Virus record (IMG/VR): IMGVR_UViG_3300027917_002728
Origin: a virus
Reading direction: 5' to 3' (one strand)
DNA length: 11,811 nt
In this document: positions 1,139 through 6,828 of the stretch, piece after piece
Layout of the letters: each line of letters begins with the position of its first letter
How positions within the stretch are numbered: position 1 is the first letter of the stretch
Program-made: the position numbers and the translations under genes
The notes under the pieces: generated by a model
The model's input: the letters and a program-made list of their open reading frames with translations, nothing else
Database searches by the model: none
What the model was told of the DNA's origin: nothing

Positions 1139-1422
1139 TCCTCTTGATCCCTCCGAAACACCACATTTTCGAGGAGATGGGACCCGTCTTTGAAGGCCCC
1201 GACTTTCCACGACTCGAACCTCATGCCTTTCTCATCCCCCACCTTGAGATCCCAAGAGGTTGTGTCAACAGTCCTCACGGGGCCATCGGGGAGTGGAAGA
1301 CGGGAGCCGTCAAGAATAACTCGACTAGCCTTGATCTCAAAGCGTCCTGGATACGACTGTATCCCACATACATCTGCTACCCCGATCACCACACCATCCA
1401 AACGGATTGCTTCTCCCCTCAT
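1135..1422 (-). CDS. Hypothetical 95-aa protein, ATGA-coupled to the stop of the actin-like gene.
   Basis: Plus strand tcat at 1419..1422 gives an ATGA overlap with the stop of the actin-like CDS. CAGGAG/GAGGA SD upstream. No recognisable family. Confidence 0.4.
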   Translation of the reverse strand: MRGEAIRLDGVVIGVADVCGIQSYPGRFEIKASRVILDGSRLPLPDGPVRTVDTTSWDLKVGDEKGMRFESWKVGAFKDGSHLLENVVFRRDQEE

Positions 1423-3518
1423 TCCTCGTACTCCTGCACGGCTTGCACCAGCATCCCGTAGGCCACCGCGTTCAGCGGCTCCCCTGCTTGCCGGATCTCA
1501 GACACCTCGATGGGGAACCGCTTCTTGGCAAAGACTTTCTCGAACAGGCCCATGAAGCCACCAGCCAGACTGGTCCCCCCAGAGACGACTAAGGGGATGG
1601 GCTTAGGCAATGCAAACTGGCCCTGGATGGCCTTGAACCGCTTGGCCACCTCATCTAGAACATAGTCGATCAGGGCCCGGTAATAGAGAACAACAGCTTC
1701 TTGCTCGCGATCCTCGGGTTTGGCCAGATCGATGCCCTGCTCCTTGATCGCGCAGATCCGTGCCTGGGTAGACCCGACCGACATGGCGGCACCTTTGTCG
1801 ATCCAGTCGCCTGAATTGTGTACTACCATCCCAACGGATGCGAAGGATCGGTGTGAAGAGTCTACCACGAGGTCATAGACATCACCTTTGTACGGGACTT
1901 CCTCCACCCCGCCAACGCGGAACAAACCAAAATCGGGAAGGCCCCCCAACATCTGCTCCACACAATTACCCTCCACGGAGAATAGGGTTTCCAACATGGC
2001 CTTGTGAACGTGCCCGCCAACCCGAACCGTGTACGAATCCTTGGTCCCCACGATCAGTACGCCATTAGGGTTAACCCCTCCTGTCCTCGGGGGCCTTTTC
2101 AAGATGGTGTGATGCACCCCCAGCCGAACCAGCAAATGGTGCGCCAACACCACAACAGGCAGCGACGTGTTATACAAAGCATACTGCTTGCGCCCTTCAT
2201 ATCCGTCACTGTCCAGCAACCCCTCCAAAATCCCCACGGCCATCGTGTTGCTGATTTTGTCCAGACCCAAAGGGAATACTTTGGTGCCCTCTGAGTCGTA
2301 AAAACGCTCCCGCATGTGCTGAGCCACCGATGTCATGTGGAGCTTCACACGTGTCACGTTCTCAGCAGGGTCGTCCACCACTTGAGGGGTTCGACCGAAC
2401 AGGGTGGTCAGGACAGAGCAATACTTGTCCACCAACTGACCGTCTTTGCGGTTGAAAGCCAACTGAACAAAACGGGGGTCTTCCGCATGAGGGCCACAAG
2501 AACCGTCCCCCAAGAACACCCCGAAGAAACGTCCCAGATTTCGGGCCCCAGCCACCGTGATGTTCTTCCCGTTTGCACGACCGAAATAGTAAGAGGAATT
2601 TGAACTCCTAGCAGGCTTGACTACGGGAGTTCCTACTACGTCCCCCTTCTGAAGGTCGGCAGCTTCTTTCCAAGACCAACTCAGACCCTGTTTGACAAGA
2701 ACACGATGATCTGAAGTCACCCGCTGAGGGAAAGCAGGCAGGCCCTCAAGAGAGACTTTGACCAGTGAGTTTCGGGGGCCATTGTTTACCACCTCGGCTA
2801 CGGAGACCAAGTCCCCGTGTGCTCCGATCACCTTATCCCCGGCTTTGATCTCCCGCACCGTACGTGGGCCTTGATCAGTACACACAAGGAAATCATCTGC
2901 CAGACAACGGGCCACACTGAAGCTCAAGCCCTCGATGGTGTTGATGGCAAGAGCTACGTTTGTCATTCCCGACCCAAAGCTCATCGACACCCCGGAAAAA
3001 TCCTCTTTGGCACACTCCGAGAAGATGATCGCCATGCCCTCATTTGAGGGGTAGGGGTCATAGCCGCACTCCTCCACGATGCGCTCGAACACTCCTCGGT
3101 GATAGATGACATCTCTGTCGGGCTGATCAATAGGCTGTGCCGGAACTGAAAAGTAGCACACCTCATTCTCCACCCTTGGCTCCCCCAGCACCTCCTTGAC
3201 TAGTAGCCCAAGGACATCGAGGGAGTCCGCTTCCTGGGGAGAGATGAGGCCCGCAGACAAGGGACGACGTGCTTCCCGGCCGAAAACATTTGCGATCTCC
3301 AGGGCAGCATCTCCCAAGACCAGAACTTCATCCTCTCTTTCCACGAAGCTCGTCTTTGCCAGCAAAAGACGCTTCCGGGCCGTGATCGGGAAATCCAGGA
3401 ACACGTCCCGCATTCGTTTGGTTTCCACTCCCTTGGAGGTCCTGCGAGCGGAGACCAGATTCATTGTTCCGATATCAAGCCCAACCCCTTTAGGGGCACT
3501 CGGTGTTCCCTTGGCCAT
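1419..3518 (-). CDS. Actin-fold (ASKHA) ATPase, MreB/ParM/Hsp70-like. The 699-aa precursor is interrupted by an intein. The mature extein would be about 335 aa.
   Basis: Phosphate-1 motif GVGLDIGTMNLVSA at the N-terminus. Phosphate-2-like SFGSGMTNVALAI. C-terminal adenosine/phosphate motif PLVVSGGTSLAGGFMGLFEKVF. Extein length is MreB-like. ATG at 3518 with AAGGA SD 5 nt upstream. Confidence 0.8.
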   Translation of the reverse strand: MAKGTPSAPKGVGLDIGTMNLVSARRTSKGVETKRMRDVFLDFPITARKRLLLAKTSFVEREDEVLVLGDAALEIANVFGREARRPLSAGLISPQEADSLDVLGLLVKEVLGEPRVENEVCYFSVPAQPIDQPDRDVIYHRGVFERIVEECGYDPYPSNEGMAIIFSECAKEDFSGVSMSFGSGMTNVALAINTIEGLSFSVARCLADDFLVCTDQGPRTVREIKAGDKVIGAHGDLVSVAEVVNNGPRNSLVKVSLEGLPAFPQRVTSDHRVLVKQGLSWSWKEAADLQKGDVVGTPVVKPARSSNSSYYFGRANGKNITVAGARNLGRFFGVFLGDGSCGPHAEDPRFVQLAFNRKDGQLVDKYCSVLTTLFGRTPQVVDDPAENVTRVKLHMTSVAQHMRERFYDSEGTKVFPLGLDKISNTMAVGILEGLLDSDGYEGRKQYALYNTSLPVVVLAHHLLVRLGVHHTILKRPPRTGGVNPNGVLIVGTKDSYTVRVGGHVHKAMLETLFSVEGNCVEQMLGGLPDFGLFRVGGVEEVPYKGDVYDLVVDSSHRSFASVGMVVHNSGDWIDKGAAMSVGSTQARICAIKEQGIDLAKPEDREQEAVVLYYRALIDYVLDEVAKRFKAIQGQFALPKPIPLVVSGGTSLAGGFMGLFEKVFAKKRFPIEVSEIRQAGEPLNAVAYGMLVQAVQEYEE
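1815..2906 (-). mobile_element. Intein (364 aa) with a LAGLIDADG homing-endonuclease domain, inserted in the actin-like ATPase after ...GLSFSVAR and before SGDWIDKG.
   Basis: N-terminal splice block CLADDFLVCTDQG...IKAGDKV (Cys1). Block B TSDHRVLV. Two LAGLIDADG motifs (GRFFGVFLGDGSC and VGILEGLLDSDGYEG). Block F VYDLVVDSSHRSF. Terminal VVHN followed by Ser +1. Codons checked on the sequence: tgt at 2906..2904, aat at 1817..1815, tca (Ser) at 1814..1812. Confidence 0.75.
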
Positions 3519-3519
3519 G

Positions 3520-4098
3520 TTAGTCCTTCTTTCTCTTTGACTTCCGTGTCTTCGAACGACCCTTCAGGGCTTTGGCAGCCTCGTCGATCCCACTGGAGTC
3601 GGACTCTTGAGACTTCACCATGACCCGGGCCTTGGAATCCTTGACAATTCCCTTGGGGACGAAGACAGGTTCTGGTGGGGCTGAAGCCACCTCCGCTACA
3701 GGCTGAGGAGAAACAGCTCTGGAAGACTGCAAAACAGGGCTCAGAGCCAACACCACCCTTTCGACGATCTCATCTGTGTCGATCTGAACTACTGGGGCCG
3801 GGACCGTAACAGAAACAGGTGGCATGCTCCCACCACCACCTCGGGTCGATCTCGGAAACACCCGTGCAGGCGGCTTACTAGGAGAGACTTTCAGGTTGGG
3901 CAACGGCTTGGCTGGTTTCTCCTGGTACCGCTCCACCTCGCGGACAAACACACCCCGGACCCGTCTGGCTCGTTTCAGGTCCTCCGACTCCCTCGCTTGT
4001 ACGGCTGGGATGTGTGCCACCTCCCCCTTGGACAACTCCAAGCCTAGGTCTTGCAGCCTCAAGAAGGTGCACAAACAAGTGATCTCAGCTTCCTTCAT
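3520..4098 (-). CDS. Hypothetical 192-aa protein with a structured N-terminal region, a Pro/Val/Ser-rich low-complexity linker, and a strongly basic C-terminal tail (KGRSKTRKSKRKKD).
   Basis: ATG at 4098 overlaps the upstream stop as ATGA (tcat at 4095..4098). Its TAA stop lies 1 nt before the actin-like ATG. No family recognised. The composition suggests a disordered linker with a nucleic-acid-binding or partner-binding tail. Confidence 0.5.
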   Translation of the reverse strand: MKEAEITCLCTFLRLQDLGLELSKGEVAHIPAVQARESEDLKRARRVRGVFVREVERYQEKPAKPLPNLKVSPSKPPARVFPRSTRGGGGSMPPVSVTVPAPVVQIDTDEIVERVVLALSPVLQSSRAVSPQPVAEVASAPPEPVFVPKGIVKDSKARVMVKSQESDSSGIDEAAKALKGRSKTRKSKRKKD

Positions 4099-4742
4099 TT
4101 GGTTGGGTCTCCCTGAGAGAGCTGCTCCAGGACCTCTTCCATCAGGATGTCTGCACAGGCTTGCCTGCCTTTTTTGATCGCTCTCTGCATGAAAGTGAAC
4201 TTCGCGATACCTGGGTGAATCCAGGCATCCTGGGTCTTCAATGGAGCCGTTCGGAAGATCACTGTACCCGACTTGGTCTTGATTGGGACAACAAGAGGCA
4301 GCCTTCTTCCCAACTCAATGGCCCCGCCTCTTTTCCTGGCCCCCCGGGAGCGTTTCCTCCTTCTCATCCCCAAGCGTTTCTCTGCCGGAGTTAGATGGAA
4401 GTTACCGTCGTAGGTGCTCTTGTACTCCTGGCTGAGCCAGGGCATCCTACGCATGGGGATATCCCCCGTCGTCAGCTCGCGGAGGCCATAGAAAGAGGAC
4501 GTGATCTCAAGGGTGCTTTTCCCTCGGACATGGTAAGAGAAAGAATCCCAAAGAGAGGGCCCCTTCATTGGGTCCTTCCCGGACCAACCCCGCTTGGCGA
4601 AGTCCTTTTTTGCCTCTTTGACGATTATGGAAACAAGGCACTCCCCGAGCTTCAGCAAGGTCTCGTGGGACACCACTATGCCTTGGGCCAGCTCCGACCA
4701 GGGCCTGCCATAGACCTTTCTGACCCTGACCTTGGCCTTCAC
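4095..4742 (-). CDS. Hypothetical 215-aa basic protein with an internal RRRKRSRGARKRGG stretch.
   Basis: GTG start at 4742 lies immediately after the TGA of the HicB-like gene and has a GGAGG SD 5 nt upstream. No family recognised. Confidence 0.5.
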   Translation of the reverse strand: MKAKVRVRKVYGRPWSELAQGIVVSHETLLKLGECLVSIIVKEAKKDFAKRGWSGKDPMKGPSLWDSFSYHVRGKSTLEITSSFYGLRELTTGDIPMRRMPWLSQEYKSTYDGNFHLTPAEKRLGMRRRKRSRGARKRGGAIELGRRLPLVVPIKTKSGTVIFRTAPLKTQDAWIHPGIAKFTFMQRAIKKGRQACADILMEEVLEQLSQGDPTK

Positions 4743-5039
4743 TCAGGCCTCCGTGGTGAAATGCGTCCCGTCGCTGAACAGAAGGTAAGGACCATCCACC
4801 GTAAGCGTCAGGGTCTCGTTCTCTGAGGTCTCTCCCAGATCAGGAACTGGAAGGTGGTCGAAAGGATCCCCTTCTAGGCCCATCTCCCGGTGTACAACCA
4901 CATGCCCAGCTAGGAGATGCTTGAGGTTGTATGCCAGGTCCTCCGGGTTATCGGCTTGTGCAACCAGGTCGATCTCTACAGGGCAGGCCAGCCATTTTCC
5001 TTCCTCCTGCCACCGCACAATGTGGAACTCCCAGCTCAT
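4743..5039 (-). CDS. HicB-like (UPF0150 / RNase H-like fold) small protein, 98 aa from ATG 5039. An alternative GTG start at 5078 gives 111 aa.
   Basis: N-terminus MSWEFHIVRWQEEGKWLACPVEIDLVAQADNPEDLAYNLKHLL matches the HicB-family pattern as I recall it (YxxxxEEDGxYxAxxPELPGCxSxGxTxEEALxNxxEAI). ATG 5039 lies 1 nt after the TAG of the upstream gene. GTG 5078 has an AAGGA SD. No HicA-like partner gene is visible. Confidence 0.4.
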   Translation of the reverse strand: MSWEFHIVRWQEEGKWLACPVEIDLVAQADNPEDLAYNLKHLLAGHVVVHREMGLEGDPFDHLPVPDLGETSENETLTLTVDGPYLLFSDGTHFTTEA

Positions 5040-5040
5040 A

Positions 5041-6453
5041 CTACCACGTGATGTTCTCCCAGACGGCAGTTCGACCACGTTGGTCCTTGTCGTCTGGTGT
5101 GTTGTCCTTCTCCGTGATCATGGGAGCCACCTCCCTGGGTCCTTCGGGGTAAGGAGGATCCCCAGTCCATGGGTGGATGGTGTCCGGGAAATCTCCATCG
5201 ATAGGCATGGAGGGGGCTTGTACGAAAGCGTATCTGGTCTCGGGGTACGTGTAATCCACCACCCCGTCAATGGGAACCTTGTACCGGATGTCCCCTTGAT
5301 CGAGATAGGCGATATTGAAGTGCTGCTGAAGCAGGTTACCTCTGTTCGAGGGCCTTCTGACAGGGCCCACAGAGTAACGCTCGTTGGTTTGCTTTACCAG
5401 GAAGTCCCGCTGGGTCACGGTAGGTGAAGGACCCATGAACACTTCATAGGAGTGCTCCATCTTGCGGCCGGTCACCTTCTGGCTTATCCGTCGTTCGGCA
5501 TCGTCTGGAGCAACGATGATGTCGAAGGGGCCCTCGTAGCCACCGCAGAAACCGGTCCCGAAGCAGGTGCAACACCTGGCCGAAGGCTGCTTGCTGAACT
5601 CCCGTGTCTTGCTCTCTATCATGCACGGGCAGGGGACTCCTGACTGACGACGGATGAAAAGCTTCACCCGCTCCCCGCCTTGTTGGAGGATCCAATGGTT
5701 CCGACGGATGGCCTCCCGCCAGATGTAGTCCAGGCGCTCTACTTCAATGACTGAGTGGGGCTGACAGTAGGATAGGTCCGTCTCTCGGAGTCCGCTGGGT
5801 GTGTCAGAGTCCAACACCACCGTCGTCAGCCGATACCATATTTTGGCGTCTAGCCCGGACCGGACACGATTACCCTCCCCCCTGTAGCTCACCTGGACCA
5901 CAGAGGACTCGGTAGGGAGGACAGCGCTCTCACACTTCTCGGTGCCCACATTGATGGTGGACTGGTTTATGAGGGTGATCTCACCAGTCCTCCCAAACAC
6001 CGACTCTACAGGCACCTCAACCCCATCGATGGTGACTGTGACATCGGAAGGGGAATTGGCATAGGTCACTGAATCGAAAGGTGCCCCGTCAATGGCCTTT
6101 ACAATCGGGTTCTGGGTCCGAAACACCCAACGACGATCGTTGGGGGCATCGCCTTTCGAGATCCAAGAAGTGGCCCAGTCAATGGTTTCCCCTGACACCG
6201 CCAGGCTGGTTGTCTGGTCCCGGTAGAACCCGCCCCCCACTGGGATTTCATTGATGCGGCTGAAGGGACCCCGGTCGGATACATCTGATCTCCAGATGTT
6301 GACCCCCACCACCGTGAAACTTGTGTTCCTGGCCAGCAGAGAGGGATCATCCCATCTGAGGTCGAGAACCCCTATCGTGAACGGACTCAGCACCTCCACG
6401 TTCTGCGGAGGTGCTGGTTGGTCAGCAGGACCAGCTGCCCACCCGGTCGTCAT
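5041..6453 (-). CDS. Hypothetical 470-aa protein with an Ig/FN3-like N-terminus and a central Cys cluster (CPCMIESKTREFSKQPSARCCTCFGTGFCGG), probably metal-binding. It may be a structural or adhesion-type protein.
   Basis: N-terminus PPQNVEVLSPFTIGVLDLRWDDPS is FN3-like. Seven Cys fall within about 30 residues. ATG 6453 directly follows the TAG of the upstream gene (plus strand catcta at 6451..6456). Confidence 0.55.
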   Translation of the reverse strand: MTTGWAAGPADQPAPPQNVEVLSPFTIGVLDLRWDDPSLLARNTSFTVVGVNIWRSDVSDRGPFSRINEIPVGGGFYRDQTTSLAVSGETIDWATSWISKGDAPNDRRWVFRTQNPIVKAIDGAPFDSVTYANSPSDVTVTIDGVEVPVESVFGRTGEITLINQSTINVGTEKCESAVLPTESSVVQVSYRGEGNRVRSGLDAKIWYRLTTVVLDSDTPSGLRETDLSYCQPHSVIEVERLDYIWREAIRRNHWILQQGGERVKLFIRRQSGVPCPCMIESKTREFSKQPSARCCTCFGTGFCGGYEGPFDIIVAPDDAERRISQKVTGRKMEHSYEVFMGPSPTVTQRDFLVKQTNERYSVGPVRRPSNRGNLLQQHFNIAYLDQGDIRYKVPIDGVVDYTYPETRYAFVQAPSMPIDGDFPDTIHPWTGDPPYPEGPREVAPMITEKDNTPDDKDQRGRTAVWENITW

Positions 6454-6828
6454 CTAGCCTGTGCCCCCCTCCATTACCCCCGTGATGAACATCTTCCCCT
6501 CAGGGGTGATGGACCATTGCTGGTTTTCATCTGGGTCAATCCCGAAGCGCCGAGCGGCATTCTCCATGACCTTCTGGGCCTTCTCGTCGACATCGCTCAG
6601 CATTCCCATGAGACGTGCCTTGCGCACCTCCAACTGACCCACCTCAAGTACGATCCTTTGAGACGATTTCCGAAGTGAGTCCAAGAGCTGCATCTCCGAG
6701 GGTTCCAGAACACCAATTGGTTCCGGTGTTTGGGCCTTGGTCGTTGACTCTTCCTGGGGCTCGGTCTCAACGGTTTCTGGTGTGGTACTCATTAGTCTCC
6801 CTTGTGGAAAGTTAGGGTAGCTCCACAC
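6454..6828 (-). CDS. Hypothetical acidic small protein. It is 124 aa from the GTG start at 6828, or 113 aa from the internal ATG at 6792.
   Basis: GTG at 6828 overlaps the upstream TAG by 1 nt. ATG 6792 has a GGGAGA SD 4 nt upstream. No family recognised. Confidence 0.45.
   Translation of the reverse strand: MWSYPNFPQGRLMSTTPETVETEPQEESTTKAQTPEPIGVLEPSEMQLLDSLRKSSQRIVLEVGQLEVRKARLMGMLSDVDEKAQKVMENAARRFGIDPDENQQWSITPEGKMFITGVMEGGTG

Follow-up and report, generated by a model that had tools for sequence, protein, structure and literature searches.

DnaB, MCM, RFC and other nucleoside triphosphatases carry inteins clustered in their P-loop and ATPase domains, and actin, MreB, Hsp70 and cytoskeletal proteins are absent from the hosts in the census that includes these cases (Novikova et al. 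2016, PMC4760082). Among actin homologs, the archaeal protein volactin of Haloferax volcanii forms dynamic filaments with ParM-like instability (PMC10869688), and the paper describing it is silent on phage homologs and inteins (Schiller et al. 2024, PMC10869688). Literature searches for inteins in actin-like, MreB, ParM or huge/jumbo-phage cytoskeletal proteins yielded only purification-tag uses and unrelated mentions. Here, we describe IMG/VR virus record IMGVR_UViG_3300027917_002728, a stretch of 11,811 nucleotides analyzed at its full length (the window), in which the gene for an actin-fold ATPase is interrupted by an intein. We give a probability of roughly 85% to the reading, drawn from the sequence, that the gene encodes a precursor with a canonical class-1 LAGLIDADG intein in a volactin-family ATPase, that it lies on a fragment of a huge-phage genome, and that the intein splices and homes as proposed below. 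New are the host family and the insertion sites; the mechanism is textbook.

The precursor is encoded by a continuous open reading frame (ORF) of 699 amino acids (1419..3518, minus strand), the longest on the minus strand of the window, and an identical 699-amino-acid protein is present on ENA contig ERZ27279932 k141_3179728 (58.5 kb). Pfam matched the precursor to Volactin in two stretches and additionally to Intein_splicing and LAGLIDADG_3 (cut-offs of 35, 35.8 and 22.5 bits, respectively), while the conceptually spliced product of 335 amino acids gave a single Volactin match (PF25216, 252.6 bits, profile positions 3-321 of 321). The preliminary description had placed an intein inside an actin-family gene at 1815-2906, and these positions are correct to the residue: the in-frame element of 364 amino acids runs exactly from the codon of Cys205 (2904..2906), the Cys1 of the intein, to that of Asn568 (1815..1817), its Asn364, and Ser569 is the +1 residue. 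With a slash marking each splice junction, here and below, the precursor reads ...GLSFSVAR/CLADDF...GMVVHN/SGDWIDKG.... The parts are as follows:

1419 to 3518, minus strand: precursor gene for a volactin-like actin-fold ATPase split by the intein (ORF scan and Pfam)
2907 to 3518, minus strand: N-extein, amino acids 1-204, ending ...FSVAR; Volactin profile positions 3-196; predicted local distance difference test (pLDDT) about 80-93
1815 to 2906, minus strand: intein, 364 amino acids, supported by its boundaries, Pfam, AlphaFold and Foldseek, and missing from L001, L002, L089, L090 and P0001-P0120
1419 to 1814, minus strand: C-extein, amino acids 569-699 plus stop, starting SGDWIDKG...; Volactin profile positions 197-321

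Taken alone, the intein matched Intein_splicing with 38.0 bits and LAGLIDADG_3 with 27.9 bits (intein residues 224-290), both above cut-off, and it had weak matches to Hint_2 under cut-off. Residue conservation was assessed in an alignment of nine inteins that occupy the same insertion site (site c, see below) and are 34-53% identical to the window intein. The Cys1, TxxH, two LAGLIDADG motifs, terminal HN and Ser+1 reported earlier are all present, far more than chance would account for, and could be mapped:

2868 to 2906, minus strand: splicing block A, CLADDFLVCTDQG, with the Cys1 nucleophile (CLADDF); C1 and L2 invariant in the nine site-c inteins
2694 to 2723, minus strand: splicing block B, RVTSDHRVLV (T64-S-D-H67); T64, D66 and H67 invariant
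2499 to 2537, minus strand: LAGLIDADG motif 1, LGRFFGVFLGDGS, with catalytic Asp134 (LGDG); G133 and G135 invariant, D134 in 8/9; helix 118-132 in the model
2199 to 2243, minus strand: LAGLIDADG motif 2, MAVGILEGLLDSDGY, with catalytic Asp234 (DSDG); S233, D234 and G235 invariant; helix 220-234 in the model
1836 to 1883, minus strand: splicing block F, DVYDLVVDSSHRSF or DVYDLVVDSSHRSFAS; V343 and D345 invariant, and Arg352 in place of the usual His
1812 to 1832, minus strand: splicing block G, GMVVHN, plus the Ser+1 nucleophile; H363 and N364 invariant

Block B also aligns to block B of the Pho RadA intein. Careful alignment of the splicing-block residues, which had been named as a way to overturn the prediction, showed Cys1, T64, H67, H363 and N364 to be present and invariant in the nine inteins. 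In the endonuclease domain, N246, T247, S248, R261, P273, R274, G277 and N279 are invariant as well. Since C1, T64, D66, H67, D345, H363, N364 and the SDG of motif 2 are kept despite the divergence of these inteins (D134 in 8/9), the pattern indicates purifying selection on both splicing and endonuclease activity.

In an AlphaFold model of the intein alone (pLDDT 83.4, predicted template modeling score 0.85), the N-lobe and the C-lobe are beta-rich and enclose two alpha/beta repeats, each of which begins with a LAGLIDADG helix. Foldseek returned the TliVMA intein (7qsu) as best match (expect value, E, 8e-20; template modeling score, TM, 0.70), followed by PI-SceI, PhoVMA, PI-PfuI and PI-TkoII (TM 0.55-0.70 for full-length inteins); the free-standing I-DmoI and I-Tsp061I were also matched. 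With the solved endonuclease-bearing inteins TliVMA/PhoVMA (7qsu, 7qst), PI-SceI (1vde, 1lws), PI-PfuI (1dq3) and PI-TkoII (2cw7), the window intein shares the order of HINT N-lobe, two-motif LAGLIDADG endonuclease and HINT C-lobe, together with Cys1, the block B TxxH and the terminal HN (Foldseek E 8e-20 to 1e-10, TM up to 0.70). It differs from them in sequence (10-17% identity), in having Ser+1 and an Arg for the block-F His, and in its host, an actin-fold ATPase as opposed to V-ATPase, polymerase or ribonucleotide reductase. In a sequence search of the PDB, the intein matched nothing but the Pho RadA intein, at 18 bits. We conclude that a two-motif LAGLIDADG endonuclease is embedded here in a canonical class-1 intein, for which splicing and cleavage are inferred from conservation, and that its host, by Pfam and Foldseek, is an actin-fold ATPase, as had been proposed.

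The extein part of the precursor model is confident (pLDDT about 80-93), and Foldseek of the N-extein model retrieved MamK (5ljv), MreB (4czk/1jcf), actin and crenactin (E 1e-7 to 1e-6). This match covers about 200 residues only, being confined to the N-extein because the intein breaks the model. At E<=0.01 the extein had no match to Pfam MreB_Mbl (PF06723) or ParM, and a PDB sequence search with it gave no real match. When the family was compared by hhalign with Escherichia coli MreB, using an approximate MreB sequence, the segment from phosphate-2 to GGD alone was aligned (E 0.03), with a weak pairing of SFGSGMTN with DIGGGTTE and of VAR/GGDWID with VRI/GGDRFD. The likeness to MreB is one of fold level only. 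The G-G/A-G segment at the equivalent position lines the nucleotide cleft in structures of actin and Hsp70. Taken together, the Pfam and fold results and this cleft-lining segment assign the host to the Volactin family (PF25216), with an actin fold, and not to the MreB/ParM family. Thus, of the "MreB/ParM-like cytoskeletal ATPase" of the preliminary description, the actin-fold ATPase stands, whereas the family has to be replaced. The spliced extein is a full-length PF25216 member by the Pfam threshold and in this resembles H. volcanii volactin. It differs from volactin in being phage-borne, and ATP-dependent filaments have been shown for H. volcanii volactin only (PMC10869688). The nucleotide-binding motifs of the extein are:

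3465 to 3482, minus strand: phosphate-1 motif GLDIGT; D15, G17 and T18 invariant in 55 aligned sequences
2958 to 2981, minus strand: phosphate-2 motif SFGSGMTN; S180, G182, G184 and N187 invariant; holds insertion sites a, a2, b and b2 in relatives
1557 to 1589, minus strand: adenosine motif VVSGGTSLAGG; S646, G647, G648, T649 and S650 at least 90% conserved

In the model, the intein sits 17 residues past SFGSGMTN, between strand 195-202 and helix 569-581. The helix starts at the junction with a GDW-D motif whose residues (G570, D571, W572 and D574 of the C-extein) are invariant in the 55 aligned sequences, which bears out the earlier placement of the site in a conserved nucleotide-binding core segment just after phosphate-2.

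Whether intein-free alleles of this gene exist in related genomes had been raised as a check, and they do: no insertion breaks R/[GS]GDW in L001, L089, L090 or P0001-P0120. A tblastn search of phage genomes found two uninterrupted homologs, LR745208.1 (485 kb, 66% identity) and LR756511.1 (595 kb, 30%). In the former (L001, an "uncultured phage"), both halves of the window protein abut and the gene order of the window is kept (p124, p470, p215, p192, the actin-like gene and the next gene). A search of the indexed protein database with the spliced extein gave 2171 relatives, and the best 120 (P0001-P0120), which were inspected, are 67-83% identical and come from contigs of up to 402 kb; as all of them measure 319-362 amino acids, none carries an intein. 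In IMG/VR, 274 loci on contigs of up to 485 kb encode a relative, the best 80 of which are uninterrupted, and so are the closest metagenome relatives (L089 and L090, 84% identity). At the intein-free junction, R-[G/S/A/C]-G-D-W-I-D, the residues G, D, W and D do not vary; of 123 alleles, 99 have Gly at the position corresponding to +1, 16 have Ser, 7 have Ala and 1 has Cys.

Inteins recur in the family. An exhaustive phmmer search with the precursor as query against 1.84 billion representatives gave 1597 matches, and the best 150 of these were mapped. Many of the 150 are 680-800 amino acids long, and hidden Markov models located inteins in 44 of them (34 belonging to the a/c lineage and 10 to the b lineage). 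This proportion overstates prevalence, since the query itself held an intein and intein divergence splits clusters; figures from IMG/VR suggest that roughly one locus in ten has an intein. The inteins occupy six or more insertion points within extein residues 180-205, the stretch of the phosphate-2 loop and the GGDWID motif:

Site a: between S180 and C181, within the phosphate-2 loop
Site a2: between G182 and S183
Site b: between M185 and C186
Site b2: between N187 and C188
Site b3: between V188 and C189
Site c: between R204 and C or S at position 205, the window's own site

Inteins at a and c bear LAGLIDADG_3 and those at b bear HNH_3 (Pfam), from which we derive two unrelated intein lineages. 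The site-a inteins are full-length homologs of the window intein (22-33% identity, E 1e-21 to 1e-46), and one intein at site c (P0181) has its nearest relatives among site-a inteins, suggestive of a site switch. A mini-intein of 141 amino acids was also found in the family (P0131). The IMG/VR loci comprise 19 with LAGLIDADG inteins at a/a2, 7 with HNH inteins at b sites and 2 with an intein at site c (L005, L006). Based on these matches, the actin-like gene family, which belongs to mostly huge phages, is an intein hotspot that was earlier unreported. The preliminary description had called such a host unusual for an intein; this holds for the literature but not for the sequence data, in which the family repeatedly bears inteins at neighboring sites. 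A word-indexed search with the intein alone had given a single weak match, and the resulting notion of an "orphan" intein was rejected as a sensitivity artefact once the exhaustive search found relatives.

Among IMG/VR loci recovered with intein profiles (L112-L165, L170-L245), 51/70 for the site-a profile and 73/80 for the site-b profile lie outside volactin-like genes; relatives of both intein lineages therefore reside in other phage genes. One site-a intein (L104, 1934..4084) ends ...LVIKN/C and is without the penultimate His. As for architecture in the family, P0137 is a tandem actin-actin duplication, and P0150, P0154, P0159 and P0184 have N- or C-terminal extensions of 130-800 amino acids.

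Site c is also occupied in P0122-P0133, P0272, L005, L006 and L088. These inteins (P0272 corresponding to L004) share with the window the junction R/[CS]GDW, a length of 361-388 amino acids, 34-58% identity over the whole length and the invariant residues of the window intein. They differ in mostly combining Cys+1 with the block-F His, as opposed to Ser+1 with Arg in the window and P0272, their exteins are 28-72% identical to that of the window, and only L006 keeps the window gene order. Apart from the window, Ser+1 occurs in P0272, P0181 and P0149, and most relatives have Cys; strict covariation of the block-F His with Cys+1 was considered and rejected because there are exceptions both ways. 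In several distant hosts, the intein is more similar to that of the window than the extein is:

P0123: intein identity 42%, extein identity 30%
P0124: intein identity 43%, extein identity 31%
P0130: intein identity 40%, extein identity 31%
P0126: intein identity 39%, extein identity 32%
P0133: intein identity 36%, extein identity 28%

Distribution is patchy as well: the syntenic L006 has an extein identity of 72%, an intein identity of 55% and Cys+1, and closer exteins (83-84%) are intein-free. Both observations point to homing with gain and loss. The distribution of these sequences thus fits homing, although present mobility of the window copy is not proven by it. The closest intein relative, P0272 (L004, 1987..3963; 58% identity, same site, Ser+1), has a host gene that is without about 40 residues, including the adenosine motif VVSGGTS, and that may be decaying; its neighborhood is unlike that of the window but phage-like (RusA, Amidase_2, sigma-70 r4). 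Outside the actin-like family, the nearest inteins found are those of inosine monophosphate (IMP) dehydrogenase (P0273-P0278; 22-25% identity over up to 98% of the intein). They show the same block pattern and LGDG/DSDG motifs, but are inserted in a GPG/C...HN/SICTTR loop of an unrelated enzyme on cellular-looking contigs.

We propose the following course of events. After translation, the N-lobe (about residues 1-95) and the C-lobe (about 325-364) would form the HINT domain. Cys1 would undergo an N-S acyl shift aided by T64 and H67 of block B, the hydroxyl of Ser+1 would attack the thioester to give a branched ester, and Asn364 would cyclize, aided by His363 and the block F Asp345, and free the intein. 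An O-N shift would then join Arg204 to Ser569, yielding the 335-amino-acid ATPase and restoring the strand-helix junction ...FSVAR-SGDWID... that adjoins the phosphate-2 loop. The endonuclease, in which both catalytic Asp residues are present, would be expected to cut intein-less alleles near ...GCCCGT/nnnGGCGACTGGAT... during co-infection. The predicted intein-less target of 60 bp is ATCGAGGGCTTGAGCTTCAGTGTGGCCCGT followed by TCAGGCGACTGGATCGACAAAGGTGCCGCC, with a Gly (GGA) variant at +1. During repair, the intein would be copied into the cut allele, and the Gly codon that is usual at +1 would be co-converted to one for Ser or Cys. The window intein would then be one of a related population that homes in the actin-like family at site c and, more distantly, at site a.

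Several observations weigh against this proposal. The His of the block-F "H-S-F" is Arg352 in the window and likewise Arg in P0272; it is kept in 35/43 distinct related inteins and not in 8/43, and the exchange could slow C-terminal cleavage. The block-F His is not known to be universally needed in inteins, and the eight other relatives without it retain all remaining residues. In the AlphaFold model of the full precursor, the intein region is of low confidence and unusable, which we attribute to the shallow alignment there and for which reason the intein was modeled separately. The metagenome scan contained no near-identical intein-free allele, the best intein-free relative being 84% identical, so that recent mobility of the window copy is not demonstrated. 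Composition likewise gives no sign of recent arrival, the GC content at third codon positions of the intein (0.61) lying inside the range of neighboring genes.

The last two points are also what a spliced but no longer mobile intein would show, that is, a vertically inherited passenger late in the homing cycle with a defunct endonuclease; neither a near-identical empty site nor a near-identical second copy was found in the metagenome scan, the composition is like that of neighboring genes, and the site-c relative P0132 is without the motif-1 Asp (LGNG), so decay does happen in the lineage. We consider this somewhat unlikely, as D134 and D234 are intact in the window, the endonuclease-domain residues listed above are invariant across inteins of only 34-53% identity, and the full 364 amino acids are kept although mini-inteins exist in the family. 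The Arg for the block-F His and the truncated host gene of P0272 could instead be read as signs of a decayed, non-splicing remnant, leaving the actin-like gene dead or its product with a permanent 40-kDa insert. This is very unlikely given an ORF unbroken over 699 codons, the presence of Cys1, T64/H67, D345, H363, N364 and Ser+1, the intact state of every nucleotide-binding motif of the extein in the window, and the relatives that do without the block-F His while retaining everything else. That the element is no intein at all, but another Hint insertion (bacterial intein-like or pretoxin-HINT) or a free-standing endonuclease gene in an intron, has in its favor the sub-cut-off Hint_2 matches and the common occurrence in huge phages of group I introns that carry endonuclease genes (PMC12363816). 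The frame is open without stops at either junction, terminal HN and Ser+1 are present, the endonuclease is nested between HINT lobes as in PI-SceI and TliVMA, and Intein_splicing is above its gathering threshold, which leaves this explanation next to negligible.

Most likely, the window derives from the genome of a huge phage, considering the synteny with the 485-kb phage record, the IMG/VR contigs of up to 485 kb and the phage homologs of a neighboring protein that resembles the major vault protein (MVP). A megablast search of phage genomes with the entire window gave no match. The MVP-like protein (7189..9867, plus strand; 892 amino acids) matches Pfam MVP_shoulder (83 bits) and Vault_3, and its only homologs in the phage database (36-39%, full length) belong to the uncultured huge phages LR756500.1 (462 kb) and LR756501.1 and LR756503.1 (735 kb). 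The order p124, p470, p215, p192, actin-like gene is kept in the window (3520..6828, minus strand), L001 (6097..8462) and L006 (292..3005); none of these four upstream proteins has a Pfam or PHROG match, and they may be partners of the actin-like protein. Further away, a deoxycytidine monophosphate (dCMP) deaminase is encoded at 10767..11456 (minus strand). Its residues 10-182 match a Pfam profile of 102 positions, which implies an insertion of about 75 amino acids in the deaminase domain, with no intein signature in the Pfam scan. The deaminase gene is overlapped by 47 nucleotides by the gene for a DUF7768 protein (10280..10813, minus strand) that PHROGs link to nucleoside 2-deoxyribosyltransferase. 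The two genes suggest a nucleotide-modification or salvage pair.

The inteins of P-loop ATPases (PMC4760082) and those described here are alike in having several insertion points in the most conserved nucleotide-binding segment and in independent lineages sharing a host domain; they differ in the fold, which is actin/ASKHA in the family of the window. By analogy, the actin-like family is the actin-fold counterpart of P-loop intein clustering. A more speculative extension, which we hold to be quite unlikely, starts from the phosphate-2/GGDWID segment of a widespread huge-phage actin-like protein as a multi-lineage hotspot. As the insertion splits the nucleotide-binding cleft, the precursor would not bind ATP or polymerize, and the intein could act as a post-translational timer or stress sensor, conditional splicing gating the assembly of the phage cytoskeleton in some phages. 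Ser+1 with the His-to-Arg exchange (window, P0272) would then be a slowed or tunable variant.

In practical terms, gene callers and homology searches will report such actin-like genes at a wrong size or in pieces, and the set constitutes new orthogonal inteins with defined extein contexts. The rule that inteins cluster at nucleotide-binding loops is extended from the P-loop to the actin/ASKHA fold. The sites that inteins mark are the most constrained ones, in genes indispensable to their carriers. The repeated presence of inteins here, from two endonuclease lineages at six or more points within 25 residues, argues that the actin-like protein is important to huge phages and that DNA passes between these phages on co-infection.

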